Of a DNA stretch of 64,000 nt, positions 25,043-47,474 are shown piece by piece. Source of the stretch: Clostridiales bacterium. GTDB taxonomy: Bacteria; Bacillota; Clostridia; Lachnospirales; Lachnospiraceae. Position 1 is the stretch's first letter. Each line of letters opens with the position of its first letter. The stretch is taken from contig JAGZDD010000001.1 in assembly GCA_018369015.1 (NCBI GenBank), positions 21,370 to 85,369 of the forward strand, given 5' to 3'. The notes under the pieces were generated by a model. That model was given only the letters and a program-made list of their open reading frames with translations, was not told the origin of the DNA and made no database searches. The position numbers and the translations under genes were made by a program.

Positions 25043-26137
25043 ATGGAGAAAGTAAAAGTTGGTATTGTGGGATGCGGAGGGATTGCCAATAGTAAACATT
25101 TACCTGCCTTGAAAAAGAACAAGGATTTGAATGATATTGTGGCATTTTGCGATATTATTCCAGAAAGGGCTGAAAAAGCGGCAAAAGAATATGGTACTTC
25201 AAAAGCAAGGATTTATACGGACTATAAAGAGCTTATGGCAGACCCAGAGGTTGAGGTTGTTCATGTATGCACGCCTAATGTTTCTCACTGCCCAATTACT
25301 GTGGCAGCTTTTGAGAGCGGCAAGCATGTTTTATGTGAAAAGCCAATGGCGGCCAACTCGGCGGATGCCGGATTAATGATAGAAGCCTGGAAAAAGTCCG
25401 GGAAAAAATTTACTATCGGGTATCAAAATAGATTTCGGGAAGATGTCCAAATATTAAAAAAGGCGTGTGAAAATGGTGAATTGGGTGATATTTATGTTGG
25501 CAAAGCTCATGCTGTGCGCCGACGCGCTGTTCCTACATGGGGCGTATTCCCAAACAAAGCTCTGCAAGGCGGAGGGCCTCTGATTGATATAGGAACACAT
25601 GCATTGGATATTACTTTATGGGTTATGGATAATTATGATGTTGAAAGTGTTTCAGGAGCCGTTTTTTATAAAATGAGGAACCATCCGGAAGGCAATATTT
25701 TTGGTCCGTGGAACCCGGAAACATTTGAGGTTGAAGATTCAGCTTTTGGCTTTGTTAAAATGAAGAACGGAGCCGTGGTATATATCGAGGCAGCCTGGGC
25801 TTTAAACACGTTAGAATCAAAAGAGGCTTCGACAACCGTATGTGGTACACTGGCCGGAGCCGAAATTCATCACGGGCCAAGTTATCCTAATGATGAGTTG
25901 ATTTTTAACCGTGTAAGAAATGAATCTTTTATGGAAGAAAGACTTTCACCGAAAGGTGGCATTGATTATTTTGAGGGGATACAGTCGGCTGAGGGTATTG
26001 CAGAAAACCGCTATTGGCTTAATGCGATTCTTAATGATACGCAGCCGCTTGTGAAGCCTGAGGAAGCCTTTGTTGTTACACAAATTTTAGAAGCAATTTA
26101 TCAGGCAGCGGACCAAAAGACTACGATTATGTTTTAA
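25043..26137 (+). CDS. Gfo/Idh/MocA oxidoreductase (candidate glycoside 3-dehydrogenase, DgpA-like role)
   Basis: GIVGCGGIA, CEKPM, GGGPLIDIGTH; SD GGAGG before 25043. Confidence 0.9.
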   Translation: MEKVKVGIVGCGGIANSKHLPALKKNKDLNDIVAFCDIIPERAEKAAKEYGTSKARIYTDYKELMADPEVEVVHVCTPNVSHCPITVAAFESGKHVLCEKPMAANSADAGLMIEAWKKSGKKFTIGYQNRFREDVQILKKACENGELGDIYVGKAHAVRRRAVPTWGVFPNKALQGGGPLIDIGTHALDITLWVMDNYDVESVSGAVFYKMRNHPEGNIFGPWNPETFEVEDSAFGFVKMKNGAVVYIEAAWALNTLESKEASTTVCGTLAGAEIHHGPSYPNDELIFNRVRNESFMEERLSPKGGIDYFEGIQSAEGIAENRYWLNAILNDTQPLVKPEEAFVVTQILEAIYQAADQKTTIMF

Positions 26138-26168
26138 TAATCATCTGAAATATAAGGGAGGAAAAGGT

Positions 26169-27047
26169 ATGCAGACAAAGAAAGGCCCTAAAAGGGGGGT
26201 ATCCGCATTTAGTTATACGGAATTACTTTTTAAAACAATGACATTGGAAGATGTGTTTGAAGAAATGAAGGATCTCGGGGCAACAGGCATTGAAATTTTG
26301 GGCAACGGGCATATTCCAGGATATCCGTATCCTAGCGATGAGTGGGTCGAGCATTGGCATTATTTATGTAATAAATATGACGTAGAACCGGCGGAGTACG
26401 GACATTGGGTCGATTCCCGGCTTTTTAAGGGAAGGCTTCTGGATGCAAAGGAAGCCACGGAGATGATTAAAAGAGATATTCGTTTGGCACATCGTTTAGG
26501 ATTTAAAGTTATGCGTACAAAACTGGGAGTGACGGACGATACACTGTCTCCGGTGCAAAATTGGCGGGAGTTTATTAAAATGGCTTTGCCTTATGCGGAA
26601 GAATATAATGTGCGTATGTGCCCGGAAATCCATATTCCAACGGCGTTAAAATCGAAAATGGTTGACGACTATGTGGAATTTATCGAACAGACTGGAACAA
26701 AGTATTTTGGGTTAAATATTGATTTTGGAACCTTCAGAAATGTTTTTGACCCGAATGAATTTCGGATGCCTGGTCTGCCGGAGGATGGAAGCCCATGTAG
26801 CTATCCTGAAGATTTAATACCTCTGCTTCCATATCTTTATGCGTGCCATGCAAAATTTAATTATATGAATGAAAATTTTGAGGAAACAACGATTCCTTAT
26901 GAAGAGATTCTTAAAATTTTAAAAGATCATCAATGGGATGGGTATATGCTTAGTGAATATGAAGGGCCTCGTATGAATGAACCAGGTTTTGTATCTGAGC
27001 AGATACGGCGGCAGCATGTTATGATGAAACGGATTCTGGGAGAATAG
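26169..27047 (+). CDS. C-glycoside deglycosidase alpha subunit-like TIM barrel (DgpC/DfgA-like)
   Basis: KRGVS, PEIH, NIDFG, HAKF, SEYEG, EQIRRQH; adjacent to a DUF6379 gene. Confidence 0.8.
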   Translation: MQTKKGPKRGVSAFSYTELLFKTMTLEDVFEEMKDLGATGIEILGNGHIPGYPYPSDEWVEHWHYLCNKYDVEPAEYGHWVDSRLFKGRLLDAKEATEMIKRDIRLAHRLGFKVMRTKLGVTDDTLSPVQNWREFIKMALPYAEEYNVRMCPEIHIPTALKSKMVDDYVEFIEQTGTKYFGLNIDFGTFRNVFDPNEFRMPGLPEDGSPCSYPEDLIPLLPYLYACHAKFNYMNENFEETTIPYEEILKILKDHQWDGYMLSEYEGPRMNEPGFVSEQIRRQHVMMKRILGE

Positions 27048-27062
27048 TTGGAGGGAACGGAT

Positions 27063-27482
27063 ATGTTAGAAATGGATGTTATACAGGTAAGAGGGTTTCG
27101 TAATATCGTACAAAACGGGAAGATCACAGGCTTTCAATTCAGAGTGAGGTCAACCTACTATCGGGGGATATGGCTGTCACTGTTAAGGCCGGGAGATATT
27201 ATCGTAGATAATGAAAGATTTCCAAGGGATTCTGTCTTATGGGAAATTGGTGGGCTTGAGTATACACCCGAAGAAATGCTAAAGACAGGAGATGTGCAAT
27301 GGCCAAACAGCGAGGCAGCGGTAATTAAGGTTAAAAAACCGGGAGGACTGGAAAGCGGATATCACGACGTAAGTATTGGATACCGCTATATTATGTCATA
27401 TATTCCTCCAGTCGTATGCAGTGATGAGGCTTTTGAACATATCCCTATGGATATATTTTCAAAACGAATGATTTTAGTATAA
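27063..27482 (+). CDS. C-glycoside deglycosidase beta subunit-like (DUF6379, DgpB/DfgB-like)
   Basis: GFQFRVRSTYYRGIWLS, W..., KKPGGL.SG.H.V; about 140 aa. Confidence 0.8.
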   Translation: MLEMDVIQVRGFRNIVQNGKITGFQFRVRSTYYRGIWLSLLRPGDIIVDNERFPRDSVLWEIGGLEYTPEEMLKTGDVQWPNSEAAVIKVKKPGGLESGYHDVSIGYRYIMSYIPPVVCSDEAFEHIPMDIFSKRMILV

Positions 27483-27495
27483 TTAAGGGAAGAAA

Positions 27496-27531
27496 ATGGG
27501 GCTGTGAAGGAAATGATTAAAACAGCCCCAT
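27496..27531. terminator. hairpin between convergent genes
   Basis: ATGGGGCTGT...ACAGCCCCAT. Confidence 0.6.
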
Positions 27532-27540
27532 CCTTATATA

Positions 27541-28914
27541 TTACATATGATATATAATCATCTTATTATAAAGCATTGTCCGCGATATGCCTAAAAGCTT
27601 TGCGGCCGATGCTTTATTATTTCCCGTATGAAGGAGGGCTTCGGCAATCAGCTTCTTTTCAAGCTGCTGTTTGGCCTGGGCCAGATTGAAGGCGCCTGTC
27701 TGAGAAAAGTGAGCGCTTCCTGAAGAAGATACAAGGCTGTGTTTAAGATTATAAAAATCGGGAACATCTAAAATAGAGTCATTGCATATATTCATTGCGC
27801 TTTCAACAGCATTTTGAAGCTCACGGATGTTTCCAGGCCAATGATAGCCCATAAGCATGGAAAGCGCTTTGGGAGAAATGCCGCTGACTGCCATACCTAA
27901 CTGACGGTTAAATTTTTGAATAAAATAGTCCACAAGAAGGGGAATATCTGTGATTCGTTCACGCAGGGGCGGAGCGATAATTCTTATGACATTCAGGCGA
28001 TAATAAAGGTCCTGTCGGAATGTTCCTTCCTTTACATCAATATCCAGAGGGCGGTTCGTCGCGGCAATGATACGTACATCAATAGAAATATTTTTATCAC
28101 TTCCTACCGGCTCAATTTCTCGTTCCTGGAGAACACGCAGGAACTTGGGCTGCATAGCCTTTGGCAGAAGATTAATTTCATCGAGAAAAATTGAGCCGTG
28201 ATCGGCAAATTCAAACTTTCCTACTTTGCCATGACGGCTTGCCCCTGTGAACGCCCCGGAGGCGTAGCCAAAAAACTCAGATTCCATAAGTTCCTGGGGA
28301 ATAGCTGAACAATTGACACGGACAAAATGGTGCCCATTGCGGGAGCTTAAGGTATGTATGGAGTGAGCAATTAATTCCTTTCCTGTTCCTGTTTCACCTT
28401 CAATGAGCACCGTAGAATTGGAACGGGCGGCCTGGCGTATTTCTTCCTTTAGCTTTTGTACGCTTGGGCTGTTCCCTATGATATTTTCAAGGCCGTATTT
28501 GGCAGAACGTTCCTTGATAAGCTCCGATTTGTAATAGGAAAGCTCATTCGCAAGGACATTGATCCGCTGGCTGAGATTCATTAAATTGTGCGCGCCCTGG
28601 ACAATAATATATAAATAGATTTTTTCTACGCTGCCTTCCGAATTTAAAATTGGATAATAGGTCGTCAGCGCCGGATTGCCGTTAAAATTAACGGATTTTG
28701 CGAAAACCATCTTCTTGGTTGCATAAACCTCTTTTGCATGAGTATCTGGGAATAAATCCCATACCTTTTTGTGGATAATATCTTCATAGCAGTGTCCTGA
28801 ATATTTAATCCATCCCGGACTTACATAAACATACCTGCCTAAAGAATCAAGGACTGCAACTGCGTCAAGTAAATTAATAAATTCTTCCATTTCATTTTTT
28901 GATAGTTCTTTCAA
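27541..28914 (-). CDS. sigma54-dependent enhancer-binding activator (PAS-AAA+-Fis HTH)
   Basis: GETGTGKE, GAFTGA, FLDEI, FRQDLYYRLNV, WPGNIREL, AAKLLGISR; probable TTG start at 28914. Confidence 0.93.
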   Translation of the reverse strand: MKELSKNEMEEFINLLDAVAVLDSLGRYVYVSPGWIKYSGHCYEDIIHKKVWDLFPDTHAKEVYATKKMVFAKSVNFNGNPALTTYYPILNSEGSVEKIYLYIIVQGAHNLMNLSQRINVLANELSYYKSELIKERSAKYGLENIIGNSPSVQKLKEEIRQAARSNSTVLIEGETGTGKELIAHSIHTLSSRNGHHFVRVNCSAIPQELMESEFFGYASGAFTGASRHGKVGKFEFADHGSIFLDEINLLPKAMQPKFLRVLQEREIEPVGSDKNISIDVRIIAATNRPLDIDVKEGTFRQDLYYRLNVIRIIAPPLRERITDIPLLVDYFIQKFNRQLGMAVSGISPKALSMLMGYHWPGNIRELQNAVESAMNICNDSILDVPDFYNLKHSLVSSSGSAHFSQTGAFNLAQAKQQLEKKLIAEALLHTGNNKASAAKLLGISRTMLYNKMIIYHM

Positions 28915-28941
28915 AATAATTTCCCCCAATGACAAAAAAAG

Positions 28942-29078
28942 TGTCAATAATAATAGACATGTCAATATTTATGTACAGTTTAAGCATTGTTTTATAAATG
29001 TATTATATCCGGGGTTTATACGCAAATGCAATATAATTATGCTGAAAATATTTTTTCGAGTGTCAATAATTATGAACA
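28942..29078. promoter_or_regulatory. three putative enhancer sites TGT-N12-ACA
   Basis: TGTCAATAATAATAGACA (28942), TGTCAATATTTATGTACA (28960), TGTCAATAATTATGAACA (29061). Confidence 0.7.
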
Positions 29079-29139
29079 CATTCATAATCGCTTATTTTAG
29101 AAAGCCTTGAAAAAGCGGCGTTTAAGGGGGATAAATTTT

Positions 29140-29155
29140 TGGCACGGCAATTGCT
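29140..29155 (+). promoter_or_regulatory. sigma54 -24/-12 promoter
   Basis: TGGCAC-GGCAA-TTGCT matches TGGCAC-N5-TTGC(A/T), about 95 bp upstream of 29251. Confidence 0.9.
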
Positions 29156-29250
29156 TTTATTAAAGATATAAAATAAATGAAATTTGGGCACTGGTGCTGA
29201 TAAGCTAAGCAGCTATTAACTATAAACTTAATATACAAGGAGGAGGGCCT

Positions 29251-30033
29251 ATGAAAATTGTAGACTTATCAATTGCTGTGGAGGATGGATTGCCAAGCGA
29301 TCCGCCGGAGCAGATTCCCAAAATACGTTATTGCAGACATAAGGACACGGCTGAAATGATGGTGAATTATTTTCACGGAGCGATTTCAAAAGGGGATCTG
29401 CCGGAGGAAAATGGCTGGGCCATAGAATTTCTTCATTTATCCACACATTCAGGAACTCATGTGGACGCGCCATATCATTACTATCCAACCCAGAATGGCG
29501 GTGAAGCGGCCTGGAAAATTGATGAAATACCATTGGAATGGTTTATTGGAAATGGGGTGAAAATGGATTTTTCGGATAAGCCGGACGGATATAAGATTAC
29601 GGCCGATGACCTGGAGCAGTATTTCCATAAAATTTCTTATATGCCTAAGGCTGGAGATATTGTTTTATTGTATACCGGAGCCGATAAATTTTGGGGAACA
29701 GGCAGGTATCTTCTTGCAGGAGCCGGCATGGGGGAGGAATCCACCATGTGGCTTATTAACCGGGGCGTGCGGGTCATGGGAACAGACGGCTGGAGCTGGG
29801 ATGTGCCGTTAGCTTATGAATGTGAAGCCTTTCAAAAGAGCAGGGATGCATCGATCATATGGGAGGCTCACAGAGTTGGACGAAAGAAGGCGTACTGCCA
29901 TATCGAAAAGCTTACAAATCTTAATCTTCTTCCGGCTTATGGCTTTAAAGTATCCTGCCTGCCTGTAAAAATTAAGGGGGCGAGCGCCGGGTGGTGCCGG
30001 GCGATAGCGATGCTGGATGACGTTGAAGAATAA
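29251..30033 (+). CDS. cyclase-family metal-dependent hydrolase (kynurenine formamidase-like)
   Basis: HSGTHVDAPYH motif, GTDGWSWD, HIEKLTNL. Confidence 0.88.
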   Translation: MKIVDLSIAVEDGLPSDPPEQIPKIRYCRHKDTAEMMVNYFHGAISKGDLPEENGWAIEFLHLSTHSGTHVDAPYHYYPTQNGGEAAWKIDEIPLEWFIGNGVKMDFSDKPDGYKITADDLEQYFHKISYMPKAGDIVLLYTGADKFWGTGRYLLAGAGMGEESTMWLINRGVRVMGTDGWSWDVPLAYECEAFQKSRDASIIWEAHRVGRKKAYCHIEKLTNLNLLPAYGFKVSCLPVKIKGASAGWCRAIAMLDDVEE

Positions 30034-30052
30034 TGAGAAATGGGGTGTAAAA

Positions 30053-30439
30053 ATGTTTGAAAAGTATATTATTAACGATACACATTTCAGAAATTATTAT
30101 AAGGGCGGGAAAGCCAGAGGATTTATTCTCTGCCTTCGTATTCATTACTACCGCGGGATTCCTCTGTCAATGATTCATAATATTAAGGTGGACATTGACG
30201 GGGAGGTGTTTGGCACAAAAGATATGCGGGTAATCCTTGGAGGAAAGGCTTATACCTTTGAGGAAATGAAGGAGATTTCAGACATAAACTGGCCGTTCGA
30301 ACAGGATCTCAGGCTGGAAATAAAGAAAGAGGGCGGCCTTATTCCCGGACGAAAGACTGTGAAGGCTGAATTAACATGCCGTAATGCCTATTTTGGCATT
30401 TTTACAGGAAAGTGCGAACGGATTATGACGTTTGGATAA
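30053..30439 (+). CDS. C-glycoside deglycosidase beta subunit-like (DUF6379)
   Basis: RIHYYRGIPLSMI, WPF, KEGGLIPG. Confidence 0.8.
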   Translation: MFEKYIINDTHFRNYYKGGKARGFILCLRIHYYRGIPLSMIHNIKVDIDGEVFGTKDMRVILGGKAYTFEEMKEISDINWPFEQDLRLEIKKEGGLIPGRKTVKAELTCRNAYFGIFTGKCERIMTFG

Positions 30440-30454
30440 TTGGAGGAGGTACGT

Positions 30455-31465
30455 ATGAGAACATCAAATGCAATAAAGCGTGGGGCAACCTTATATTGCT
30501 TTCAGGAGCAATACTTTTTTGGAAAATATGATTTAGAGGACTGCATTGCGGCTGTGGCGGATATGGGCGGTGAAGGCGTTGAGCTCATCCCGGATCAGAT
30601 GATTGCAGAGTTTCCCAAAGTCAGCGACCATTTTATCGGGCAATGGAAGGAATGGATGGATCAATATGGCGTAGTTCCTACCTGCATGGACGATTTCGTG
30701 GAATCTGCCCTGTATGCCCACCGGGAGGTGTCGGAGGATGAGCTTGTTGAACGGTTTAAAAAAGCCGTACAACTGGCTAAACGTATGGGCTTTACTGTGA
30801 TACGGGAACAGTTTGCATTAAGCGAGGATTCAAAGCTGATGAGTCTGCCATTATTGGAGCGGTGCTTCCCTTACGCGCAGGAGGCCGGTATATCCATTGG
30901 GCTGGAGGTCCATGCGCCCAACTACATACAAAACCCTCAGATTGACGGTTATCTGGAAATGATTTTAAAGAAGAACTCTCCTTACCTGGGGCTGATTCCG
31001 GACTTTAGTATTTTTTGTACGGACATTTATAAAAGGTTTGATGAATATTACAGGCGTCACGGCGTCCGTGAACAGGTGATTGAGATAACACACGACAGTT
31101 ACCGGAATGATTTTGGAAAAGAAGGAAATTTAAAACGTTTGTCCGGCAGCCATTTATCTGAAATTGAATACGAGTATGCGTCGACAATGTTTAATTGGCA
31201 TAAAAAGACTGAGCCGGAAACGATGTTAGAATTTTCTGAATATATTCATCATTGCCATGCGAAATTTCAGTGCATGACTAAAGATTACCGGGATGAAGCT
31301 CTGGACATGGCCCATATTGTGGATGTGCTTCGGAAGATGAATTATCATGGCTGTATTAGCAGCGAATATGAGGGAAACCGGTGGGTCCATGACGATCATG
31401 TGGATGACTGTGTGGAGCAGGTAAGACGACATCAAATATTGCTTAAAAACGTTTTGGGGTATTAA
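30455..31465 (+). CDS. C-glycoside deglycosidase alpha subunit-like TIM barrel (DgpC-like)
   Basis: IKRGATLY, LEVHAP, IPDFS, HAKF, SEYEG, EQVRRHQ. Confidence 0.82.
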   Translation: MRTSNAIKRGATLYCFQEQYFFGKYDLEDCIAAVADMGGEGVELIPDQMIAEFPKVSDHFIGQWKEWMDQYGVVPTCMDDFVESALYAHREVSEDELVERFKKAVQLAKRMGFTVIREQFALSEDSKLMSLPLLERCFPYAQEAGISIGLEVHAPNYIQNPQIDGYLEMILKKNSPYLGLIPDFSIFCTDIYKRFDEYYRRHGVREQVIEITHDSYRNDFGKEGNLKRLSGSHLSEIEYEYASTMFNWHKKTEPETMLEFSEYIHHCHAKFQCMTKDYRDEALDMAHIVDVLRKMNYHGCISSEYEGNRWVHDDHVDDCVEQVRRHQILLKNVLGY

Positions 31466-31555
31466 AAGGGATAGCACCGGGGCATTTGGCCCGGCTGACG
31501 ACAAGCAGAAATAAAAATGTAAAAAAGAACCATAATAATATTGAGGAGGTATTTT

Positions 31556-33136
31556 ATGATGATGAAACGATGGATCGCACTAATGTGTACATTAGTAATG
31601 ATGTTATCAATGCTGGCTTCCTGCGGGCAGAAGGAGAGCGAGCTTGTTTTAGATACAGACGGCAGCAAAGATGAGAGTGCGCAGACTGGCGGCGAAATTG
31701 TTGAATTAAATATGTATTATCCAGCTTATTATGGAGTTCCAAGAGATCTCCAAATGGTTGAGGACGCGGTGAATGAGCTGGTTGAGGAAGAATTAGGAAT
31801 AAGAATACATCTTCACACACCGGAGGTCGGCAATTATGAGCAGCAGATGAATTTAGCCCTGTCCTCTGGGGAGCAGGTAGACTTAATGCTGACCTATGCT
31901 TACGGCGCCGTGGGGTTTACAAACCTGAAATCTTTAAACCTGCTCAGTGATATTACAGATGAAATGAACACCTATGGCCAGGATATTCAAGCTCTCCTTG
32001 GGGATGTCCTTAACGCGACAACTGATAACGGCGTGATTTACGGAATGTGCGGCAACCGCCCGATTAAGTCCGATTTATATATTATCATGCGTACAGATGT
32101 CCTCGAAGACCTGGGCCTTTTAGAAAAAGCAGAAAATATGACGGTCTTCAAGGAATACGAGGAGATTCTCGAAGCTGTTAAAAATAGTGAAAAATGGAAT
32201 TATCTTGCCGGGATTGTTCCAATGGATACGATGGGAACCGTCATTTCCCTGACGGGCAATTATGTCACAGGCGACAATTTTGAAGATACATCCGTTTATG
32301 ATTCTCTTGGCTATTCGACAATTTTAATCGGCTCCGATCCTGTCAGCGGCGAGGGAAATGTCTATAACAACTATGCTTCTGAACAATTCCATGAAATGTT
32401 TTTAAGAGTCAGGGATTGGAATGAAAAAGGCTATATTTATAAGGACGCAACAGCGCAGACAGAATTAGCCGAATCGATGATTAAGCAAAATGCTGCATTT
32501 TCAGCATTTATTCAGACAGAAGGCGGGCAAAAAGCCTGCGAGGCAGCAAAAGCAATGGCCTGCGGTATGCCTATGACTTGTGTTAAGGTCAAGGAAATGC
32601 CGGTATTAACGAGTAATGCGACAAAATTTGACTGGGTTGTTCCTGTGAATACTATTGATGCGGAGGCGGCGGTCCGTTTCCTGAATTTTATGTATACAAG
32701 CCCTGAGCTTAATAACCTTTTGGCCTGGGGGATTGAGGGTGTCCATTATGAAGTTAAAGACGGCGTTGCCTGTTTTATGGAGGGAGAAGACACATCATCC
32801 GCAGGGTATCATTCCATGGAATACTTTTTTGGAAACCAGTATTTAGTGACGCCCTGGGAAGGAAATGCCCCTGATATTAGGGAAAGCCAGAAGGCGGATA
32901 TGGAAAATGCCGAGGTGTCAAAGTACCTTGGCTTTGTGGCAGACCTTTCCGAAGTGGAATCTGCCGTAACCGCCGTCCAAAATGTGACTATGGAGTGCCT
33001 TCCGGCAATTGCGTCCGGTTTTGCCTCTGAGGAAGATTATGAGAACTTCCTTACAAAGCTGGAGTCGGCAGGTGCACAGAAGATTATCGATACTTATCAG
33101 GCTCAACTGAGCCAGTGGATGGAGAAGAATCAATAA
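31556..33136 (+). CDS. carbohydrate ABC substrate-binding lipoprotein (DUF3502 type)
   Basis: Lipobox LASC, WGIEGVHY, AGAQKIIDTYQAQL; paralog of 14880 and 62225. Confidence 0.9.
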   Translation: MMMKRWIALMCTLVMMLSMLASCGQKESELVLDTDGSKDESAQTGGEIVELNMYYPAYYGVPRDLQMVEDAVNELVEEELGIRIHLHTPEVGNYEQQMNLALSSGEQVDLMLTYAYGAVGFTNLKSLNLLSDITDEMNTYGQDIQALLGDVLNATTDNGVIYGMCGNRPIKSDLYIIMRTDVLEDLGLLEKAENMTVFKEYEEILEAVKNSEKWNYLAGIVPMDTMGTVISLTGNYVTGDNFEDTSVYDSLGYSTILIGSDPVSGEGNVYNNYASEQFHEMFLRVRDWNEKGYIYKDATAQTELAESMIKQNAAFSAFIQTEGGQKACEAAKAMACGMPMTCVKVKEMPVLTSNATKFDWVVPVNTIDAEAAVRFLNFMYTSPELNNLLAWGIEGVHYEVKDGVACFMEGEDTSSAGYHSMEYFFGNQYLVTPWEGNAPDIRESQKADMENAEVSKYLGFVADLSEVESAVTAVQNVTMECLPAIASGFASEEDYENFLTKLESAGAQKIIDTYQAQLSQWMEKNQ

Positions 33137-33164
33137 GGCTTATAAGTGAAAGTGTGGGGTGGAC

Positions 33165-34514: not shown

Positions 34515-34583
34515 ATATGGCAGAAGGCTGCTGTTTTTCCTATATAAAAGATTTATGCCAAAATCGTTCAGGGAGGGATTTAT

Positions 34584-35483: not shown

Positions 35484-35519
35484 AATAACATGGTACGGAT
35501 GTGAGCAAATTATAATAAC

Positions 35520-39586: not shown

Positions 39587-40513
39587 TCAGCAATAGATTT
39601 TATAAAGCTCCTGTTTGACATAGTAGCTGGATAATGCCATAGAAGCAAGCAGATCCGGTGTGCCGTCATCCTCAATAGATACCCAGCCTTTAAAACCGTA
39701 TTTTTTCACAAGCTGCCACAGGCCTTTGAGATCAAGGACGCCTTCGCCCGGCTCCCAGAACCAGCGCCAGCCATCATCGCGGATTTCAACATCTTTATCG
39801 TAGCGGATTTCATCAGGAACCGCAATGGATGCTGTATCTTTTAGATGAAAAGTGCAGATCCGGTCGTGGTAGGTTTCGTAAAATTTCAGCAGATCATCCC
39901 CCATAATAGCAATCTGAGCTGTGTCCAGACAGTAAAATACATAGTTTGGATCCGTAAGTTCAAGAAAATGATGATGATTTTCTTTATTTACCGCACAGAA
40001 AAATTCATTATGGATTCCAACCTTAATGCCCTTGGAAACGGCATAGCGCCCAATATCTGTAAGGACTTTTGCCGCGTTCTTTAACGCCTGTTCATCAAGC
40101 GGCCCCACGCCATAGTAGTTATTGGCAGGGCAAGTGTTTAAGTGCTGGCCGCCAAAGGCCGCGCACAAATCAACGGCGGCTTTTCCTGCCTCAAGCACTT
40201 CGTCGTATTTATCGGCCATGAAGGAATTGTCCGCGCCGTGGAACATTCCGCTGACAGTGATTCCATGGTCCGCAGCAAAATCTGTAAAATCCTTTGGAGT
40301 ACCAAAAAGCTTTAAAATGTCCGCCACATCCCAGGGGGCGATTTCGATTCCGTCATAGCCGGCCGCCTTGTGATAGCGAAGTATCCGGTCCCAGTCGGAA
40401 TAATAGGCAATGTTACTTTTATCTTCGTAATAAAAATCCCTGAAATTATCGATTTGTTTATAGGGAATAGTTTTCCAGTGATTCATATGGGAAAGCTTTA
40501 TGTTTTCGCACAT
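39587..40513 (-). CDS. IolE-like sugar phosphate isomerase/epimerase (TIM barrel)
   Basis: GYDGIE, IHNE, LDTAQ, FHLKD, EPGEGVLD, GWVSIEDD; SD AAGGAGG before 40513. Confidence 0.85.
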   Translation of the reverse strand: MCENIKLSHMNHWKTIPYKQIDNFRDFYYEDKSNIAYYSDWDRILRYHKAAGYDGIEIAPWDVADILKLFGTPKDFTDFAADHGITVSGMFHGADNSFMADKYDEVLEAGKAAVDLCAAFGGQHLNTCPANNYYGVGPLDEQALKNAAKVLTDIGRYAVSKGIKVGIHNEFFCAVNKENHHHFLELTDPNYVFYCLDTAQIAIMGDDLLKFYETYHDRICTFHLKDTASIAVPDEIRYDKDVEIRDDGWRWFWEPGEGVLDLKGLWQLVKKYGFKGWVSIEDDGTPDLLASMALSSYYVKQELYKIYC

Positions 40514-40538
40514 AGTTGACCTCCTTTTGGCTAAAGCC

Positions 40539-41513
40539 TTATTTTGTATGCAGTGTGTGACCGATATAGTATCTGGCCCGTAAAAGGGAGCGGGGAAAAT
40601 CCCGTGTCTGTTTCGCATTGACGATGACAGGCCCATGAAAGCCGGATTTTAAAAGCTGTTGATAAATTTCAGGAAATGCAACATTTCCCTGACCAAGATC
40701 TTTAAAAATCTGAGTAGCCTGGACGCATGGAAATTCTGGTGAAGGGCTGGCATAAACATTGTCATTATCAATAAATGCTGTATCGGAAAAATGGACGGTT
40801 CCAATGAGAGATCGATTATTTTTAATAAATTCAGAGGGATTTTCACCGGCAATTTGCAGCTGGGCGGTATCGGCATCTATGAGAACCGGGATGCCATTTA
40901 AATCCGACTGTATTTGTCTGACATAATCTATGATTTTACTGCCGCGCAGCAGCCCCCAATATTCATTTTTAAGACATAAAGTGACATCGTTTTTTGCTGC
41001 GTCAGATGCAAGGCGGGCAATGACCTGTTTATTTTTCTCAAGGAAGCGGTCAGCCCATGATTCGCTTTCACCGGACATGTTTTCCAGAGCCTTGATTGCT
41101 GCAATGGGCGGCGTTGCTGTTAAAATGAAAAATTTTGTTCCTGCCTGCCTGCAAAAATCAATGGCTTCGGCGGCAAAATGTTCCATGGCGCCAAAGTACA
41201 TATCGGCATTTCCGGAGCAGAACATGGATGGATCCAGGTGAACGCTGGAAATCCCCTGTATACCTATATCTTTCAGCATATTCATATAATTTTTTACAGT
41301 TTTGAATTTTGTTGTAATAGAACGCAGCGTTCGTGGAATACCGGAACGTCCGCCAAAATCCCATTTAGGTTCATAAGGAATTTCAATATCTGTAAAGCCA
41401 GCCCCACAGATCAGTGTGTAGGCCTCGTCCCAATAGAATTTACATTCCCGCTGATTCCGGTTGGGGGCCTGGTTGTGCAGATCAATCATTTCCGTACTCA
41501 GGCAAAAGTTCAT
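40539..41513 (-). CDS. divergent sugar phosphate isomerase/epimerase-family TIM barrel
   Basis: GFTDIE, LKNE, DTAQL, VHFSD, DLGQGNV.F. Confidence 0.75.
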   Translation of the reverse strand: MNFCLSTEMIDLHNQAPNRNQRECKFYWDEAYTLICGAGFTDIEIPYEPKWDFGGRSGIPRTLRSITTKFKTVKNYMNMLKDIGIQGISSVHLDPSMFCSGNADMYFGAMEHFAAEAIDFCRQAGTKFFILTATPPIAAIKALENMSGESESWADRFLEKNKQVIARLASDAAKNDVTLCLKNEYWGLLRGSKIIDYVRQIQSDLNGIPVLIDADTAQLQIAGENPSEFIKNNRSLIGTVHFSDTAFIDNDNVYASPSPEFPCVQATQIFKDLGQGNVAFPEIYQQLLKSGFHGPVIVNAKQTRDFPRSLLRARYYIGHTLHTK

Positions 41514-41649
41514 AAGAAAACCTCCTCGTATAAATGATAGTACCCTTAACTTAGAAGGGGGTTAGTACAGTATGTTTTAAGAATAAGCGTTCAAACAGAC
41601 AATGTCAACACTTTTTGATAAATATTTTATAAAAGTTATATTAAAAAGA

Positions 41650-41678
41650 TTGACATTGGAAAAAATATTGTGTATTTT
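41650..41678 (+). promoter_or_regulatory. sigmaA promoter of the 41898 oxidoreductase
   Basis: TTGACA-N17-TATTTT with TG extension. Confidence 0.6.
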
Positions 41679-41695
41679 GTTAGTAACCGTTCAGC

Positions 41696-41757
41696 CAGCC
41701 GGGAATGATGGGCTAAAAATCGTGTAAACACGATTTTTAGCCTATTGCTCCCGGCTG
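41696..41757 (+). repeat. long inverted repeat (about 30-bp stem) in the 5' leader
   Basis: CAGCCGGGA..GGCTAAAAATCGTGT-AA-ACACGATTTTTAGCC..TCCCGGCTG. Confidence 0.85.
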
Positions 41758-41897
41758 AGGGAGAGCTAGATTATGAGCAAAGGCAGCCGCGAAGCGGCGG
41801 AAAGCACGTTAGCTGCGCAAATCCGATATGCATGACTGGATAGCTGCTATTTGCCCGCTGTATGGCGAAAGCTTTATTACGTAAAGGAGTTAGAATT

Positions 41898-43079
41898 ATG
41901 GAAAAAAAGAATTATGTTGGTATTGGAATTATTGGGTGCGGAACGATCAGCGATGTATATTTGACAAATATCACAAAGCATTACAACAATGTGAAAATTA
42001 TTGCGTGTGCGGATATGTTTTTAGAAAAGGCAAAGGCTGCAAAGGAGAAGTACGGATTGCCAAAGGCATGTACCGTTGAGGAGCTTTTGGCAGACCCTGA
42101 AGTAGAGCTTGTTGTTAATCTTACAATTCCAGCGGCCCATTATGAAATTAACATGAAAGCATTGAACAGCGGAAAGCATGTGTACTGTGAAAAGCCGTTA
42201 GCGTTAAGTACAAAAGAGGCCAAAGCAACCGTGCTGCTGGCGAAAGAAAAAGGGCTTCTGGCATGCAGCGCACCAGATACATTCCTGGGGGCCGGTATAC
42301 AGACCTGCCGCAAGCTGTTAGATGAAGGACGGGTCGGGAAGCCTATTGGATTTACTGCGAATATGGTTGCCCCGGGGCATGAATTGTGGCACCCGGCGCC
42401 GGAGTTTTATTATAAAAAGGGCGGCGGGCCAATGATGGATATGGGGCCATATTATATTACGGCTCTTGTGTCTCTTTTGGGGCCGGTAAAGCGCGTATCT
42501 TGTATGGCTAAAATTTCCAGAGCAAAGCGAGAGATTCACGGTACAATGATGGACGTTGAGGTTCCCACACATTATGCGGGAATCATGGAGTTTTCCAGCG
42601 GTGTTATTGGAAATATAAATATGAGCTTTGACGTATGGGATTCCCAGCTTCCCGGCATTGAAATATATGGTACAAAAGGAATGATTACGGTTCCTGACCC
42701 GAACCTTTTTGGCGGCTCTGTGAAGGTTTTTGATGGAATGAAGCTGGCAGAGCTTGTAAAAGAAACCCAAGGCCCATCTTTTGCCAGGCTGGTAAAGATG
42801 ATAACAAGTACCCCGCAGTGTCGGGGGGATGTTCCCCTGGCTTTTCCGGCAGATGAGGACCCAAGGTGCAACATGCGCGGGCTTGGCGTGTCGGACATGG
42901 CCCAGTCTTTGCTTACAGGACGTAAAAGCCGCCTAAGCGGGGAGCTTTCCAGTCATGTTGCCGAGGTGCTTACAGCATTTGATAAAGCCGCCCAGGAAGG
43001 CAGGACCTTAACAATGGAAACCTCCTGCGAGCGCCCGGCGCCTATGGCCGGGGGCCTTGAACTTTGGCAGGTGGACTGA
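41898..43079 (+). CDS. Gfo/Idh/MocA oxidoreductase
   Basis: GIIGCGTIS, YCEKPL, SAPDTFLG, WHPAPEFYY..GGGPMMDMGPYY. Confidence 0.92.
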   Translation: MEKKNYVGIGIIGCGTISDVYLTNITKHYNNVKIIACADMFLEKAKAAKEKYGLPKACTVEELLADPEVELVVNLTIPAAHYEINMKALNSGKHVYCEKPLALSTKEAKATVLLAKEKGLLACSAPDTFLGAGIQTCRKLLDEGRVGKPIGFTANMVAPGHELWHPAPEFYYKKGGGPMMDMGPYYITALVSLLGPVKRVSCMAKISRAKREIHGTMMDVEVPTHYAGIMEFSSGVIGNINMSFDVWDSQLPGIEIYGTKGMITVPDPNLFGGSVKVFDGMKLAELVKETQGPSFARLVKMITSTPQCRGDVPLAFPADEDPRCNMRGLGVSDMAQSLLTGRKSRLSGELSSHVAEVLTAFDKAAQEGRTLTMETSCERPAPMAGGLELWQVD

Positions 43080-43196: not shown

Positions 43197-44312
43197 ATGG
43201 TTACTGGGATCAGCAATATTGAGGTGCGTCAGGCGAACCGGCAGAACATTCTTCAAATTATAAGAGAAAATGGGATGCTGACGAAAAAAGATATATCGAA
43301 CCGCTTAAATTTAAGTCTTGCCACAGTGACAACTCTGCTTCGGGAATTAATTGATGAAGGGGTCGTGGAGCCTGGGGAGGCTTCGGATTCTACGGGAGGA
43401 CGAAAGCCGATATTGTACCGGGCTGTGGCCAATGCAAGAGTGGCGCTTGGGGTATCCTTAAGCCGCCGTCATATCCGCATGGTGCTTGCAACGTGGAACC
43501 AGGAGATATTAAAGACAGGCAGTGAGCAGGTACTTTATGAAAATACAGACGCCTATTGGGAAAAGCTTAAGAATATCATCCATAATTTCCTGGAAGTTGA
43601 TTATGTAGAAGGCGGCTGTTTTAAAGGGATTGGTATTTGTATACAGGCGATTATCATTCCCGGAACAAATATGGAAGGGATCATCCCAGTGGAAATATTT
43701 GAAGGGATTGATTTTGAGAAAATTAAGGCATTATTTCCTTGCCCGGTATTTTTCTATGAAAATATGAAATCGGCGGCATTTTCCCAAATCGGCGCTCCGG
43801 GAAAGCGCAGGCAGACTGTATATCTTATGCTTGACCGTCTTGTGGGCGGCGCTGTTGTGGCGGGCGGAACCTTCTGGGGCTTGTCAGACCGGGCGGGAGA
43901 GTTCGGACACATGGTTGTAGGCGATGGAGAGGATATTTGCTGCTGCGGCAGGCGCGGCTGTCTTCAGACCTGTTGTGGGAGCGATGTCATTCGCAGTAAA
44001 AGCGGCAAGGAGCTTGCTGAATTTTTTGAGGCTTTGGAAAAGGATGACCTGGCATGTATGGAGATTTGGGAGAATTACATGAAGTATCTTGCCAGAGCCA
44101 TTCATAATCTCAGGATTATCTTTGATGTTGACATTACTATCGGCGGCGAGATGGTTCCATATATACGCCGGTACGAAAAAACATTGCTGGCAATGCTGGC
44201 TCAGACGGATCTTTATATGGAGCCTGTGAATTATCTGCATTTTAGCGATGGCGGCGAAATGGATAGCGCCGTGGGGGCCGCCTATATTACTCTGGAAAAG
44301 ATTGCACAATAA
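43197..44312 (+). CDS. ROK-family transcriptional regulator
   Basis: N-terminal wHTH, STGGRKP, AGEFGHM, CCCGRRGCL. Confidence 0.92.
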   Translation: MVTGISNIEVRQANRQNILQIIRENGMLTKKDISNRLNLSLATVTTLLRELIDEGVVEPGEASDSTGGRKPILYRAVANARVALGVSLSRRHIRMVLATWNQEILKTGSEQVLYENTDAYWEKLKNIIHNFLEVDYVEGGCFKGIGICIQAIIIPGTNMEGIIPVEIFEGIDFEKIKALFPCPVFFYENMKSAAFSQIGAPGKRRQTVYLMLDRLVGGAVVAGGTFWGLSDRAGEFGHMVVGDGEDICCCGRRGCLQTCCGSDVIRSKSGKELAEFFEALEKDDLACMEIWENYMKYLARAIHNLRIIFDVDITIGGEMVPYIRRYEKTLLAMLAQTDLYMEPVNYLHFSDGGEMDSAVGAAYITLEKIAQ

Positions 44313-44553: not shown

Positions 44554-44607
44554 AAGAAGGGTATGGCAAGAATCATCATATGATTCTTGCCATACCCTTC
44601 TTTTTTT
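44554..44607 (+). terminator. perfect 23-bp hairpin plus T tract upstream of the third deglycosidase operon
   Basis: AAGAAGGGTATGGCAAGAATCAT-CAT-ATGATTCTTGCCATACCCTTCTT-TTTTT. Confidence 0.75.
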
Positions 44608-44741
44608 CACAATAAATACGCAAAACTTGGCAGAAAATGCCGAAGGTTCGACCGAAAATCCAAAGGAAGCGGGCAGACGGAAAATTTATAATGTAGGAGA
44701 AATGAGGAACTGATAAAACGAACGTATATAAAGGAGGAGCC

Positions 44742-45200
44742 ATGTTTGATAATTTTTTAATCCGAAAGGACAGCCTTAAAAATGAAATTGATGGCAACGG
44801 CAACGTCACCGGCTTTATGTTTGCTGCGAGAAATGCCAATTACAGGGGAGTTTATCTGTCGCTTCACAATGGCTATTACATTAAAGTTGACGGCGTTCTT
44901 TATAAAAGAGATGTACAGTCCTTTGAAATTAACGGACAGAAACCAAGGACCTTTGAAGAAATAAAAAACGCTGTGTGGGAACACTGGGATTTTGATGACG
45001 AAGGGATTATTCATGTAAAGAAGCCCGGCGGCCTGGCTCCGGGAAAGCATATCATTGAATTTCAGCAGTCCGTGCTGGCTGCCTATGGTTATCTTCCCAC
45101 AGATGAGGAATGGGTAAAAAATCCTCCTGAGCCGGGAACCGGGGCCGGATCAGATAAAACAAAAAATATTGTCACATATGAGCTTATGCTTCAGGAATAG
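44742..45200 (+). CDS. C-glycoside deglycosidase beta subunit-like (DUF6379)
   Basis: GF.FAARNANYRGVYLS, HWDF, KKPGGLAPGKH. Confidence 0.8.
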   Translation: MFDNFLIRKDSLKNEIDGNGNVTGFMFAARNANYRGVYLSLHNGYYIKVDGVLYKRDVQSFEINGQKPRTFEEIKNAVWEHWDFDDEGIIHVKKPGGLAPGKHIIEFQQSVLAAYGYLPTDEEWVKNPPEPGTGAGSDKTKNIVTYELMLQE

Positions 45201-45215
45201 GGGGGAACAGAAATT

Positions 45216-46349
45216 ATGGGAAAAATCAAAAGAGGCGTTTCATTATACAGCTACCAGCAGGCGCAGTTTTTCAAAGAGCTTGACTTAGAAGGACAGATCC
45301 GGGAGGTTGGAACAAATCTTTTTGGCGCGGACGGCATTGAGCTGCTCGATGAGCAGGCCCTTCGCAAATATCCAAACCCGCCGGAAGAGTTTTTTATCCA
45401 ATGGCACGGATGGATGGAAAAATATCATACAACTCCGGTGACAATGGATGTTTTTTGTGATGTGCTCCAATTCAGGAATCACGTGATGAGCTATCACGAA
45501 TGTGCCGACCGCCTGAAAAGCGATATACGCCTGGCTAAAAAGCTGGGATTTAAAAACGTTAGGGTGCTTGCCACAACGGAGATTGAAATTCTTACGGAAG
45601 CCCTCCCTGTGGCTGAGGAATGTGACATACGTATTGGAAAGGAAATTCACGCGCCGATTCCATTAAACGGACAGTTTGTCAATGAGATTGCCGATTATGT
45701 GGAACGCACAGGAACGAAACATCTTGGAATCGTTCCGGACTGGGGGATTTTTGCTTTCCGGCCGTCCGAGGTTACTTTAGATTGGTATAGACGCCAAGGG
45801 GCAAAGCGTGAAAGCTGCGAGCTTGTAACGCAGCTTTGTATGGATAACTACAATGGAAAAAGTACAGAATTAAACGACATTGACCTTTCCCTATATTCTG
45901 CGGGAAATGTGGAATCCTTCTTTCATCGTTATTTAAAGCATGGCGATGCTCCGAAGGACTTGATCCCGGCGTTTGAAAAAATGGAAAAAATGATTAAGGA
46001 AAATGTTCCCGGATATACAGACATAGATTTTGAGGTTATGGGCCAGGCCCTTTTACTTTCAAGAATTAAGCCGGAGGATTTAAAGCCGCTCATGCCCTAC
46101 ATTGTAAGTATTCACGGAAAGTTCTACAACATGACTGAAATTCCGGGAAAGCCAGGCCAGTACCAGGACGTTTCCATGGATTATGAAGGGCCGATTAAGG
46201 TACTAAAGGAAATGGGCTATGAAGGCTATATTAATTCGGAGTATGAGGGGCAGCGCCGCTTCCAGGACAGGGGCATTGAGGATCTCATCAGCGAGGTTGA
46301 CCAGGTAAGAAAGCATCAGGAAATGCTTAAGCGGCTTTTAGATGATTAA
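45216..46349 (+). CDS. C-glycoside deglycosidase alpha subunit-like TIM barrel (DgpC-like)
   Basis: IKRGVSLYSYQ, KEIHAP, VPDWG, HGKF, SEYEG, DQVRKHQ. Confidence 0.82.
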   Translation: MGKIKRGVSLYSYQQAQFFKELDLEGQIREVGTNLFGADGIELLDEQALRKYPNPPEEFFIQWHGWMEKYHTTPVTMDVFCDVLQFRNHVMSYHECADRLKSDIRLAKKLGFKNVRVLATTEIEILTEALPVAEECDIRIGKEIHAPIPLNGQFVNEIADYVERTGTKHLGIVPDWGIFAFRPSEVTLDWYRRQGAKRESCELVTQLCMDNYNGKSTELNDIDLSLYSAGNVESFFHRYLKHGDAPKDLIPAFEKMEKMIKENVPGYTDIDFEVMGQALLLSRIKPEDLKPLMPYIVSIHGKFYNMTEIPGKPGQYQDVSMDYEGPIKVLKEMGYEGYINSEYEGQRRFQDRGIEDLISEVDQVRKHQEMLKRLLDD

Positions 46350-46370
46350 GAAAATACGGAGGAAAATTGA

Positions 46371-47474
46371 ATGAGGAAATTAAAATTAGGAATTATTGGA
46401 ACCGGCGGGATTTGCAATAATAAGCACCTGCCATCTCTCGCAAAGGTAACAGACAAGGCGGAGGTTGTCGCCCTTTGCGACCTTATTGAAGAAAAGGCTG
46501 TTGAAACAGCAAAGCGCCACGGGCTTGAAAATGTGAAAATATATACGGACTATAAAGAGCTTTTAAGCGACCCATCCATTGATGTCGTGCATGTCTGCAC
46601 ACCGAACGTTTCTCACTGCCAGATTACTGTCGACGCGTTTGCGGCGGGAAAACATGTTCTTTGCGAGAAGCCTATGGCGGCAACGGCAGAGGATGCCGGG
46701 AAAATGCTGGAGGCATGGAAAAAATCGGAAAAAAAATTCACGATTGGTTATCAGAACCGCTTCCGCTATGATGTTCAGGTGTTAAAAAAAGCCTGCGACG
46801 CTGGAGAGCTTGGGGAGATTTACTATGGGGAGGCCAATGCGATCCGCAGAAAGGCTGTTCCTACATGGGGCGTATTTCCAAACAAAGCCCTTCAGGGCGG
46901 CGGCCCATTAATCGACATCGGAACCCATGCTCTGGATATTACGCTTTGGTGTATGAACAATTATGATGTAGACAGTGTAAGCGGGCAGGTATTTTATAAA
47001 CTGGGAAACATTCCTGAGGCCGCCGAAGGAAATACCTATGGCCCATGGGATACAAATACCTTTGAGGTTGAGGATTCTGCCATGGGCTTTATCAAAATGA
47101 AGAACGGCGCTTTGATTAATCTGCGCGCGGCCTGGGCGATTAATATGCTGGATGCAAGAGAGGCGTCGACGACACTTTGCGGAACAAAGGAAGGCGCGGA
47201 AATTAAGCATGGCGGCAGTTATCCAAAATCTGAGCTGTGGTTTAACCATACGCGGCATGGAAAAATGTGCCATGAAACATTATCCGGCGAAGCCTTAGTT
47301 GATTATTTTGACGGTGTCAATGAAGCCCCGGGAGTCGTTGAGGCAAAGCAGTGGATTGAGGCTATACTTAGCGACACACAGCCTTGCGTAAAACCGGAGG
47401 AGGCATTTAGAGTAACACAGATTCTTGATGCGATTTATAAAGCGTCTGAAAGGAATGAAACAATAAAATTTTAA
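46371..47474 (+). CDS. Gfo/Idh/MocA oxidoreductase (close paralog of 25043)
   Basis: GIIGTGGIC, CEKPM, GGGPLIDIGTH. Confidence 0.92.
   Translation: MRKLKLGIIGTGGICNNKHLPSLAKVTDKAEVVALCDLIEEKAVETAKRHGLENVKIYTDYKELLSDPSIDVVHVCTPNVSHCQITVDAFAAGKHVLCEKPMAATAEDAGKMLEAWKKSEKKFTIGYQNRFRYDVQVLKKACDAGELGEIYYGEANAIRRKAVPTWGVFPNKALQGGGPLIDIGTHALDITLWCMNNYDVDSVSGQVFYKLGNIPEAAEGNTYGPWDTNTFEVEDSAMGFIKMKNGALINLRAAWAINMLDAREASTTLCGTKEGAEIKHGGSYPKSELWFNHTRHGKMCHETLSGEALVDYFDGVNEAPGVVEAKQWIEAILSDTQPCVKPEEAFRVTQILDAIYKASERNETIKF

Follow-up and report, generated by a model that had tools for sequence, protein, structure and literature searches.

How a gut bacterium comes to keep three different C-glycoside deglycosidases (CGDs) within 64 kb, and whether they form one system, is the question raised by the stretch of DNA analysed here, positions 21,370 to 85,369 of contig JAGZDD010000001.1 in assembly GCA_018369015.1. 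This whole stretch of 64,000 nucleotides (the window, with positions counted from its first letter) holds three pairs of adjacent genes predicted to encode both subunits, alpha and beta, of CGDs, lyases that are described as acting after oxidation of the sugar at C3 and as expelling the aglycone by metal- and histidine-assisted elimination (PMC8563793, PMC10628242). Such cleavage in the gut decides the release of active aglycones from dietary and medicinal vitexin, orientin, mangiferin and puerarin. A preliminary description of the window had suggested that the three pairs, under two-component, sigma54 and ROK control, make up a modular system for several C-glycoside classes. Our reading, to which we attach a probability of roughly 0.7, is that the window is a mosaic of three units, that it belongs to a genome in which the lyases have expanded to about 26 modules, and that the units are separately induced.

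Three divergent lyase pairs

The beta subunits were recognised with the PF19906 profile (CGDB, or DUF6379), which scores the three genes at 115.9, 107.7 and 117 bits against a curated cut-off of 27.6. All are on the forward strand: beta 1 at 27063-27482 (or from an alternative start at 27048; E 1e-33), beta 2 at 30053-30439 (or from 30017; E 3.8e-31) and beta 3 at 44742-45200 (E 4.8e-34). A control scan of 14 well-known genomes returned zero PF19906 matches, so the three cannot be put down to chance; ubiquitin matches that surfaced in the beta profile alignment search were repeat-summing artefacts. Abutting each beta on the same strand is a gene of the AP_endonuc_2 family, namely alpha 1 (26169-27047), alpha 2 (30455-31465, or from 30440) and alpha 3 (45216-46349), so that the order is alpha-beta in pair 1 and beta-alpha in pairs 2 and 3.

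The motifs E-x-H, D, H-x-K and E-x-E are found in all three alphas, and alignment and motif spacing place all seven metal and catalytic residues in each (E153, H155, D185, H227, K229, E263 and E265 in alpha 1; E151, H153, D183, H268, K270, E304 and E306 in alpha 2; E143, H145, D175, H300, K302, E342 and E344 in alpha 3). In AgCGD2 the manganese ligands are given as E147, D179, H269, K271 and E305 and the catalytic residues as H149 and E307 (Mori et al., PMC8563793). All three betas have a tyrosine before the RG motif, which aligns with residue 39 of DgpB; this Tyr39 is reported to be essential for C-C, not C-O, cleavage (Bitter et al., PMC10628242). Identity among the pairs is 28-35% for the alphas, which fall in different clades, and 28-34% for the betas. 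The preliminary description is thus borne out as to the three DUF6379-like genes, the motif-bearing TIM-barrel gene beside each (E.H / D / H.KF / SEYEG type), the gene orders at 26, 30 and 45 kb and the divergence of the pairs, which represent different subfamilies.

Alpha 1 is of the short DfgA type, matching DfgA (7bvs) with E 3.5e-110 and about 56% identity as counted from the alignment, and its CGD fold is assigned by sequence only. Alpha 2 belongs to a rare subfamily, having among the matches listed two relatives at 76-77% identity, four near 50% and others at no more than 39%; its AlphaFold model has a predicted local distance difference test score (pLDDT) of 95.8 and its best fold match is the CGD of Deinococcus aerius (8qvc; template modelling (TM) score 0.93, 35% identity). 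Alpha 3 represents a long-lid subfamily common in gut Lachnospiraceae, and its model (pLDDT 93.0) is closest to 8umc and 8qvc (TM 0.79-0.80, 32-33% identity). In both fold searches the top rows contained CGDs only, with E between 1e-34 and 1e-18, the next fold following at E 1e-13 or weaker. Pairs 2 and 3 are predicted lyases of uncharacterised subfamilies and share no more than 35% identity with any enzyme of solved structure. To judge by its likeness to DfgA/B, the substrates of pair 1 are most likely 6-C-glucosides like isovitexin, homoorientin and mangiferin, and it is plausible that the three pairs serve distinct substrate classes.

Two forward-strand genes supply the preceding step. That at 25043-26137, which has a ribosome-binding site, is an orthologue of DgpA, the Gfo/Idh/MocA glycoside 3-oxidoreductase (phmmer to 7xr9, E 2.5e-173, residues 1-360), and that at 46371-47474, 66% identical to it, is a second (E 3.4e-159). 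The earlier assignment of DgpA-type enzymes to the locus therefore holds for the first and third pairs, but the second has no oxidoreductase beside it.

A genome-wide expansion

Three pairs are not the whole system that they had been taken for. The genome to which the window belongs (G000) is an assembly of 4.0 Mb in 244 contigs, with 78.6% completeness and 0.75% contamination. PF19906 matches it 26 times, always without stops, and it encodes 27 alpha homologues; together these genes make up 25 pairs that are adjacent or fused (17 in the order beta-alpha, 5 alpha-beta and 3 fused); a further pair is probably split over contigs C102 and C90, and one alpha is degenerate. All seven residues are kept in 25 of the 27 alphas (one of the others being cut by a contig end, the second being the degenerate copy) and in 116 of 120 alphas over nine genomes, and the Tyr39 equivalent is kept in 25 of the 26 betas. 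Alpha and beta distances co-vary (Mantel r 0.80, reached by none of 2000 permutations), as expected if pairs were copied or acquired as units, and the adjacency and co-divergence of the genes fit a cognate heteromer. The 27 alphas form 18 groups at 50% identity, with a median identity of 28%.

Given 26 copies, the probability that any three fall within 17.7 kb is about 0.06, and that four fall within 48.8 kb about 0.01, the fourth pair being 2.5-4 kb upstream of the window on contig C94 of G000 (beta 17270-17800, alpha 17808-18830); local clustering is thus only mildly above chance. This fourth pair is flanked by an Amidohydro_2 gene and a DUF3502 binding protein (C94:16275-20525, equivalent to L162:5976-10226; 1-5 kb before the window).

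All 7 congeners carry the family, with 25, 16, 14, 5, 3, 2 and 1 PF19906 copies, those that are 95-98% complete having 14, 16 and 25. Among 400 other Lachnospiraceae genomes, sampled one per genus, 28 are carriers: thirteen have one copy, seven two, five three, and one each 4, 5 and 8. An order-wide sample gave 15 carriers among 400 genomes, with 1-9 copies, two of these 15 counts being lower bounds as the best 11 candidates were scored. The densest set found is that of a Lachnospiraceae metagenome-assembled genome of 2.6 Mb (G427), which has 33 matches and, within the 20 regions examined (L219-L238; the same genome is behind L055 and L057), 29 intact alphas. The type-strain genome of Catenibacillus scindens has 14 by profile. 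Three pairs per genome are ordinary among carriers, and 26 is near the top of the range found. The premise that known clusters carry one pair does not survive these counts, at least three copies being present in 8 of the 28 family carriers, or the 3-6 dgpBC clusters per Catenibacillus genome that had been published (PMC11170127).

Several copies in G000 depart from the usual form. Contig C49 encodes a single-chain alpha-beta fusion of 493 residues (468-1949) and a beta-alpha fusion of 451 residues (22115-23470), and C102 an alpha-beta fusion of 484 residues (3105-4559); the solved single-chain enzyme, 8qrz, is beta-alpha, and the alpha-beta fusion group has 11 members in 5 genomes. The degenerate alpha (C103:3301-4392), in which most metal ligands are lost, lies directly 5' of an intact beta-alpha pair and is possibly a non-catalytic subunit. 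The sole beta without the Tyr39 equivalent (C35:7338-7742) is separated from its alpha by a Gfo gene and is a candidate O-glycoside-only eliminase. On C55 (964-6752; L165) a CGD pair stands 5' of a glycyl-radical enzyme and its activating enzyme.

A mosaic of three units

Unit 1 extends over about 11.8-27.5 kb on a single strand, with short gaps between genes. At its head are a sensor histidine kinase (12213-13904, forward) and a YesN-type AraC response regulator (13923-14711, forward), followed by genes assigned from profile matches, all forward: an ATP-binding cassette (ABC) importer with an SBP_bac_1/DUF3502 lipoprotein, two permeases and no ATPase gene (14880-18315), a FAD_binding_2 flavoprotein (18341-19999), an iron-sulphur flavoenzyme like old yellow enzyme (OYE) and BaiCD (20009-22006) and a GH3 glycosidase (21997-24984). 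The enzymes at 18341-24984 are likely to reduce the aglycone and to trim O-linked sugars. This arrangement was not found in the 7 congeners or in 38 metagenome loci, and without an orthologous locus the two-component control proposed for pair 1 rests on adjacency: the two genes are indeed there, as candidate regulators, but it is their position that links them to the pair.

In unit 2, a PAS and sigma54 enhancer-binding protein with the GAFTGA motif (27541-28965, reverse strand; profile and motif) diverges from a forward-strand series of a cyclase-family, kynurenine-formamidase-like metal hydrolase (29251-30033), beta 2, alpha 2 and an importer of the DUF3502 type (SBP_bac_1/DUF3502 lipoprotein and two permeases, 31541-35483), the cyclase and the importer being assigned from profile matches. 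The permease at 33159-34514, about 450 residues long, has a long N-terminal extension, a form shared by other CGD-linked importers. The activator and cyclase look like an aromatic-catabolism module joined to the lyase, since in genome G314 the cyclase orthologue sits with a sigma54 activator and without a CGD. As a conserved CGD partner the cyclase was rejected: its orthologue occurs in 3 of the 400 family genomes, and in none of the three is a CGD adjacent in the DNA examined. The ESM Atlas gave nothing for it past 'cyclase family', and the metagenome contigs yielded no context for pair 2. Beyond the importer (35562-38982) are a DUF3160 protein with a zinc ribbon and tetratricopeptide repeats and an unannotated neighbour, whose orthologues in L179 adjoin a paralogous TIM-TIM module.

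Unit 3 occupies 44.7-57.9 kb, and 22 gut-genome loci have it conserved at 66-93%. On the forward strand, pair 3 and the second DgpA orthologue are followed by an Opp/Dpp-type ABC importer (SBP_bac_5, two permeases and two ATPases, 47498-53059; profile matches), a second Gfo/Idh/MocA gene outside the DgpA clade (53659-54741; profile matches) and the gene at 54756-57218 for an 820-residue protein with cupin, AraC helix-turn-helix (HTH) and GH39-like regions, the proposed regulator of the unit on account of its domains and the conservation of the locus. The 22 orthologue loci, many of which end early, keep DgpA in 18 cases, the second Gfo in 13, the regulator in 10 and the Opp binding protein in 8. 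Three importers are thus present, as had been claimed, but those of units 1 and 2 are of the same class.

Units 2 and 3 are separated by unrelated genes. These include a separate sugar module with two IolE-like TIM barrels on the reverse strand (40539-41513 and 39587-40636), a Gfo/Idh/MocA gene (41862-43079) and a ROK repressor (43197-44312). The module at 39.6-43 kb was considered and rejected as dfgCDE: it maps to C. scindens contig 18, whereas contig 1 carries the published DfgC/D and contig 9 carries DfgE. Beside it, at 39235-39675, lies what is probably the remnant of a gene for a choloylglycine hydrolase/penicillin V amidase, a fragment that covers profile positions 66-150 of 316. Contigs of independent runs break at both ends of 38979-41825, one X11 record joins 41825 to 38979, and a short repeat near 41.7-41.8 kb shows increased depth, possibly as a result of strain variation of the two TIM-barrel genes.

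The units differ in composition and distribution. The GC fraction is 0.42 in units 1 and 2 and 0.47 in unit 3, against 0.45 for the genome, and in the 7 congeners units 1 and 2 have no orthologues and unit 3 has them in two, so that the units are never found together. As to the host, the best orthologue of unit 3 (91%) is in Ca. Scybalocola faecigallinarum, also a member of the beta-3 cluster, which GTDB has moved into Catenibacillus (Goris & Braune 2024, PMC11170127), and 8 of 10 proteins of a C. scindens type-strain locus (L069) match G000 at 75-97%; on these grounds we take the organism to be a Catenibacillus-like member of the Lachnospiraceae, Catenibacillus being the likely genus. Window DNA was found in mouse-gut runs of several studies. 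A contig of run X5 (study P3), which is not the run flagged as a possible source, spans 26400-38980 unbroken and so places pairs 1 and 2 together in an independent sample; in the independent runs searched, no single contig bridged pairs 1 and 2 to pair 3. In the RNA-library run X15, the region of about 27.7-38 kb occurs in short low-depth contigs with both gene orientations, and such contigs cannot show transcription.

Control of the units

Sigma54 control of unit 2, as already proposed in the preliminary description, is supported. A -24/-12 promoter with an exact match to the consensus (TGGCACGGCAATTGC, 29140-29154, forward strand) lies 97 bp 5' of the cyclase start and is one of the window's two zero-mismatch sites; the genome has rpoN, and the divergent activator carries GAFTGA. 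As a regulator of pair 3 the ROK repressor was rejected. It is absent from all 22 unit-3 orthologue loci, 19 of which include at least 2.4 kb of upstream DNA, and its orthologues in the congener loci L175 and L177 (64-67% identity) accompany the TIM-TIM-Gfo module with no CGD after it.

The candidate operator of unit 3 is a 27-bp palindrome, GGCAAGAAT-N9-ATTCTTGCC (44565-44591, forward strand), which is conserved upstream of beta 3. A search started from random seeds and leaving out the window yielded it, with 17 of 20 loci scoring above 12 and a mean score of 19.1 against 10.5-11.3 in shuffles. In the scoring loci it stands 159-245 bp before the start, except in L038 (98 bp). The top match of the model across the whole of G000 is 44565-44591 itself; a genome-wide regulon was not found there, the next matches not being tied to CGD loci. 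In G000 the palindrome is the core of a 20-bp hairpin with a T-run (44555-44601), downstream of ROK. A role as terminator alone was rejected, the core being a conserved palindrome in other genera, and the element may be both operator and terminator of the ROK transcript. A -10 box (TATAAT, 44687-44692, forward strand), conserved in position among the orthologues and with no consensus -35, follows.

Regulation of unit 3 is most likely exerted by the protein encoded at 54756. Its HTH_18 domain scores 66.7 bits (cut-off 33.6), and its C-terminal 520 residues align with GH39 (E 7.5e-35), keeping the nucleophile Glu (E593) and having WEKT where GH39 has the acid/base motif WNEP. G000 contains 33 GH39-like proteins, 30 of them with an HTH, and over 8 genomes of the genus, which are kin and not independent, the GH39-like and CGD counts correlate (rho 0.87). 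Matches to 54756 at E no greater than 1e-60 occur in 18 of the 28 CGD carriers of the family sample and in 8 of the 372 other genomes; in 15 of the 18 matching carriers the regulator is within 5 kb of a beta gene, and genome G781 has its one PF19906 and one GH39-like gene in the same unit.

The family would probably also explain the puzzle of GH39 genes without activity in C. scindens, for which 21 such genes are reported and yet no xylosidase or beta-glucosidase activity (Goris & Braune 2024, PMC11170127). In the supplement of that paper, 22 of the 23 GH39 rows retrieved have an AraC/YesN regulator annotation, mostly for proteins of about 800 residues with GH39 beginning near residue 300. One of the GH39 rows, HNP82_001251, adjoins dgpBC and has BBG22497.1 as its best CAZy match; since this accession is two past those of dgpABC from strain PUE, the founding dgp cluster would appear to have such a regulator.

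Two further parts of the window contain members of the family. At 3793-10007, a gene like DAPG/phloretin hydrolases (PF18089) and two MFS_2 transporters, likely concerned with aglycone catabolism, accompany a regulator gene of the AraC-GH39 type that seems to be broken into two frames (5966-7801 and 7759-8418). At 58175-63820, another such regulator (59700-62072) is found with a binding protein and a GH51 arabinofuranosidase above its NCBIfam cut-off, which indicates that the family also serves units without CGDs.

Proposed mechanism and alternative explanations

We propose that three units for glycoside uptake and elimination, assembled independently of one another, make up the mosaic of the window in this gut specialist akin to Catenibacillus, the importer of each bringing in, we suggest, its own class of plant glycoside. 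A DgpA-type NAD-dependent enzyme, encoded in units 1 and 3 and presumably supplied in trans for unit 2, would oxidise the sugar at C3, whereupon the cognate Mn-dependent alpha/beta lyase would split the aglycone off the 3-keto C- or O-glycoside by elimination, with 2-hydroxy-3-keto-glucal as the other product. The pocket formed by alpha and beta would set the aglycone specificity; published accounts describe specificity as set by both subunits, the subunits as not exchangeable and the enzymes as having dual O/C activity (PMC8563793, PMC10628242). Induction would be separate, that of unit 2 through the PAS-sigma54 activator, that of unit 3 most likely through the pseudoenzyme regulator 54756 at the 44565 palindrome, and that of unit 1 possibly through the two-component pair upstream, and the AraC-GH39 proteins may sense glycosides through their dead hydrolase barrel. 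What the analysis itself shows are genes, residues, folds, copy numbers, co-occurrence and motifs, and from these we infer the substrates, regulator binding and induction of the units.

A number of observations weigh against this account. A Gfo/Idh/MocA gene lies within 3 kb of only 5 of the 27 alphas of G000, many contigs being short, and it is for this reason that a few DgpA-type enzymes are supposed to serve many lyases. The palindrome precedes the -10 box by some 100 bp, whereas AraC proteins usually bind at direct repeats closer to the promoter. Linkage of the AraC-GH39 genes to the lyases is loose, as they lie within 10 kb of an alpha in 11 of 29 cases in G000, 6 of 28 in G004 and 6 of 24 in G007, proximity at 5 kb is not significant in the latter two genomes, and G427 combines 33 beta matches with 8 GH39-like ones. 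The search of the family sample used a query that is itself CGD-linked and scored the best two candidates per genome, within which limit 10 of the 28 CGD-bearing genomes gave no regulator match. Finally, C. decagia has many pairs and yet is reported to act on neither puerarin nor aloin (PMC11170127), which means that a high copy number cannot be equated with breadth over the known C-glycosides.

The main rival holds that most of the paralogues are eliminases of O-glycosides or other aryl-glycosides, that oxidation and elimination replace glycoside hydrolases throughout the genus, and that only a few subfamilies, that of pair 1 among them, cleave C-C bonds. In its favour, PuCGE eliminates from both O- and C-glycosides and plants contain a far greater diversity of O-glycosides (PMC10628242), C. 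scindens is described as beta-glucosidase-negative and yet removes O-glucosides (PMC11170127), and 18 subfamilies in one genome seem more than should be required for the few C-glycoside classes common in the diet. However, the tyrosine required for C- but hardly for O-cleavage is kept in all but one of the 26 betas, and the O-only eliminases, exemplified by AtOGE, are described as having no beta subunit (PMC10628242). We regard this explanation as rather unlikely. Less probable again is a view of the AraC-GH39 proteins as regulators that are active hydrolases at the same time, or as regulators of carbohydrate use in general, without a particular link to CGD units. The nucleophile Glu is retained in all 119 orthologues of 54756 and in 20 of the 29 long paralogues of G000, of which four keep both Glu residues and one the Asn-Glu pair, but the acid/base Glu is present in only 7 of the 119, and the preceding Asn is not among the six commonest residues listed at its position. 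As to position, 18 of the 29 paralogues are over 10 kb distant from any alpha or stand on different contigs, and 59700 adjoins an arabinofuranosidase gene, whereas all 18 family genomes that match 54756 at E no greater than 1e-80 carry CGD genes.

The single island of three coordinated modules under two-component, sigma54 and ROK control draws on the fact that each of the three regulators is upstream of its nearest pair, and for sigma54 the case is supported. It is nevertheless improbable, because ROK keeps company with the TIM-TIM-Gfo module away from any CGD and is missing from every unit-3 orthologue locus, because the three units co-occur in none of the 7 congeners and differ in GC, and because unrelated genes divide units 2 and 3. 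That the high copy number arises from binning or from decaying redundancy has been largely refuted already and is most improbable. The assembly is fragmented and incomplete, but contamination is below 1%, the 26 matches have no stops, the median alpha identity is 28%, the C. scindens type strain has 14 copies of its own, and independent runs contain the region. The original observation is confirmed, and its interpretation is supported in part.

Beyond the mosaic itself, we tentatively entertain the idea that Catenibacillus-like gut bacteria specialise in polyphenol glycosides by means of a large combinatorial system of some 26 aglycone-specific lyases, mostly without a characterised member in their subfamily, served by a few shared DgpA-type enzymes and switched on by an undescribed family of about 30 cupin-AraC regulators whose dead GH39 barrel senses intact or 3-keto glycosides; some of the lyases might then cleave classes of C-glycoside for which no cleavage in the gut is known so far. 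With a handful of CGD lyases characterised to date, 26 intact, co-diverged pairs in 18 subfamilies offer a ready panel for finding the determinants of specificity, of use also for biocatalytic C-glycosylation, in which the reaction is run in reverse (PMC13273386).

Comparison with known systems

Pair 1 resembles DfgA/DfgB of Eubacterium cellulosolvens (EuCGD; 7bvs, 7dre, 7exb), which is described as acting on 6-C-glycosides (PMC8563793), in its short alpha, its alpha-beta order and all metal and catalytic residues. It differs in being about 56% identical and in having a DgpA orthologue, GH3, OYE and FAD enzymes as neighbours and not dfgCDE; alpha 1 is one of four DfgA-group paralogues in G000. 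As regards DgpA/DgpB/DgpC of strain PUE (7xr9; 7bvr, 7exz), the genes at 25043 and 46371 are orthologous to DgpA and the same two-step chemistry is expected, and as in a dgpABC-type operon a DgpA-type gene is found beside the pair in units 1 and 3, but not in unit 2. The identity of alphas 2 and 3 to DgpC is 23-29%, too low for puerarin specificity to be taken for granted, and the closest DgpC-like alphas of G000, as judged by an N-terminal motif, are on other contigs (C170 and C175). The best structural match of alphas 2 and 3 is the C-glucosyl deglycosidase of D. aerius TR0125 (8qvc, 8umc), known from its PDB titles, to which they are 32-35% identical; alpha 3 exceeds the solved chain in length by about 50 residues.

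The regulator 54756 has its C-terminal region in common with the GH39 beta-xylosidases (2bs9, 1px8), but it lacks the acid/base motif and is fused to a cupin and an AraC HTH. Its top NCBIfam match is the Staphylococcus AraC regulator AryK (NF047455, E 1.7e-61), from which it is set apart by a score far below the cut-off (208 against 850 bits) and by its link to CGD loci. Goris and Braune (PMC11170127) read the 21 GH39 genes as hydrolases, while the rows of their supplement are mostly annotated AraC/YesN.

The enzymes themselves and multi-copy genomes are already known. Catenibacillus genomes are reported to have 3-6 dgpBC clusters each, with dgpA mostly elsewhere, and a division of substrates among them has been proposed (Goris & Braune 2024, PMC11170127); PDB titles likewise include numbered second CGD copies in strains W974-1 and P581a. 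The literature searches, from which subscription journals were mostly absent, found no CGD copy counts above the published ones and nothing on CGD regulation, and as far as they reach, the novelty lies in how far the lyases have expanded, in how many uncharacterised subfamilies they form and in a likely regulator family with a candidate operator. The published Catenibacillus counts were obtained with a cut-off of 33% identity, by which C. scindens has four DgpBC in the text and three DgpBC with two DfgA rows in the supplement (PMC11170127). Screens by identity threshold thus undercount CGDs, the PF19906 profile finding 14 in the C. scindens type genome, against 4-6 annotated, and 26 in G000.

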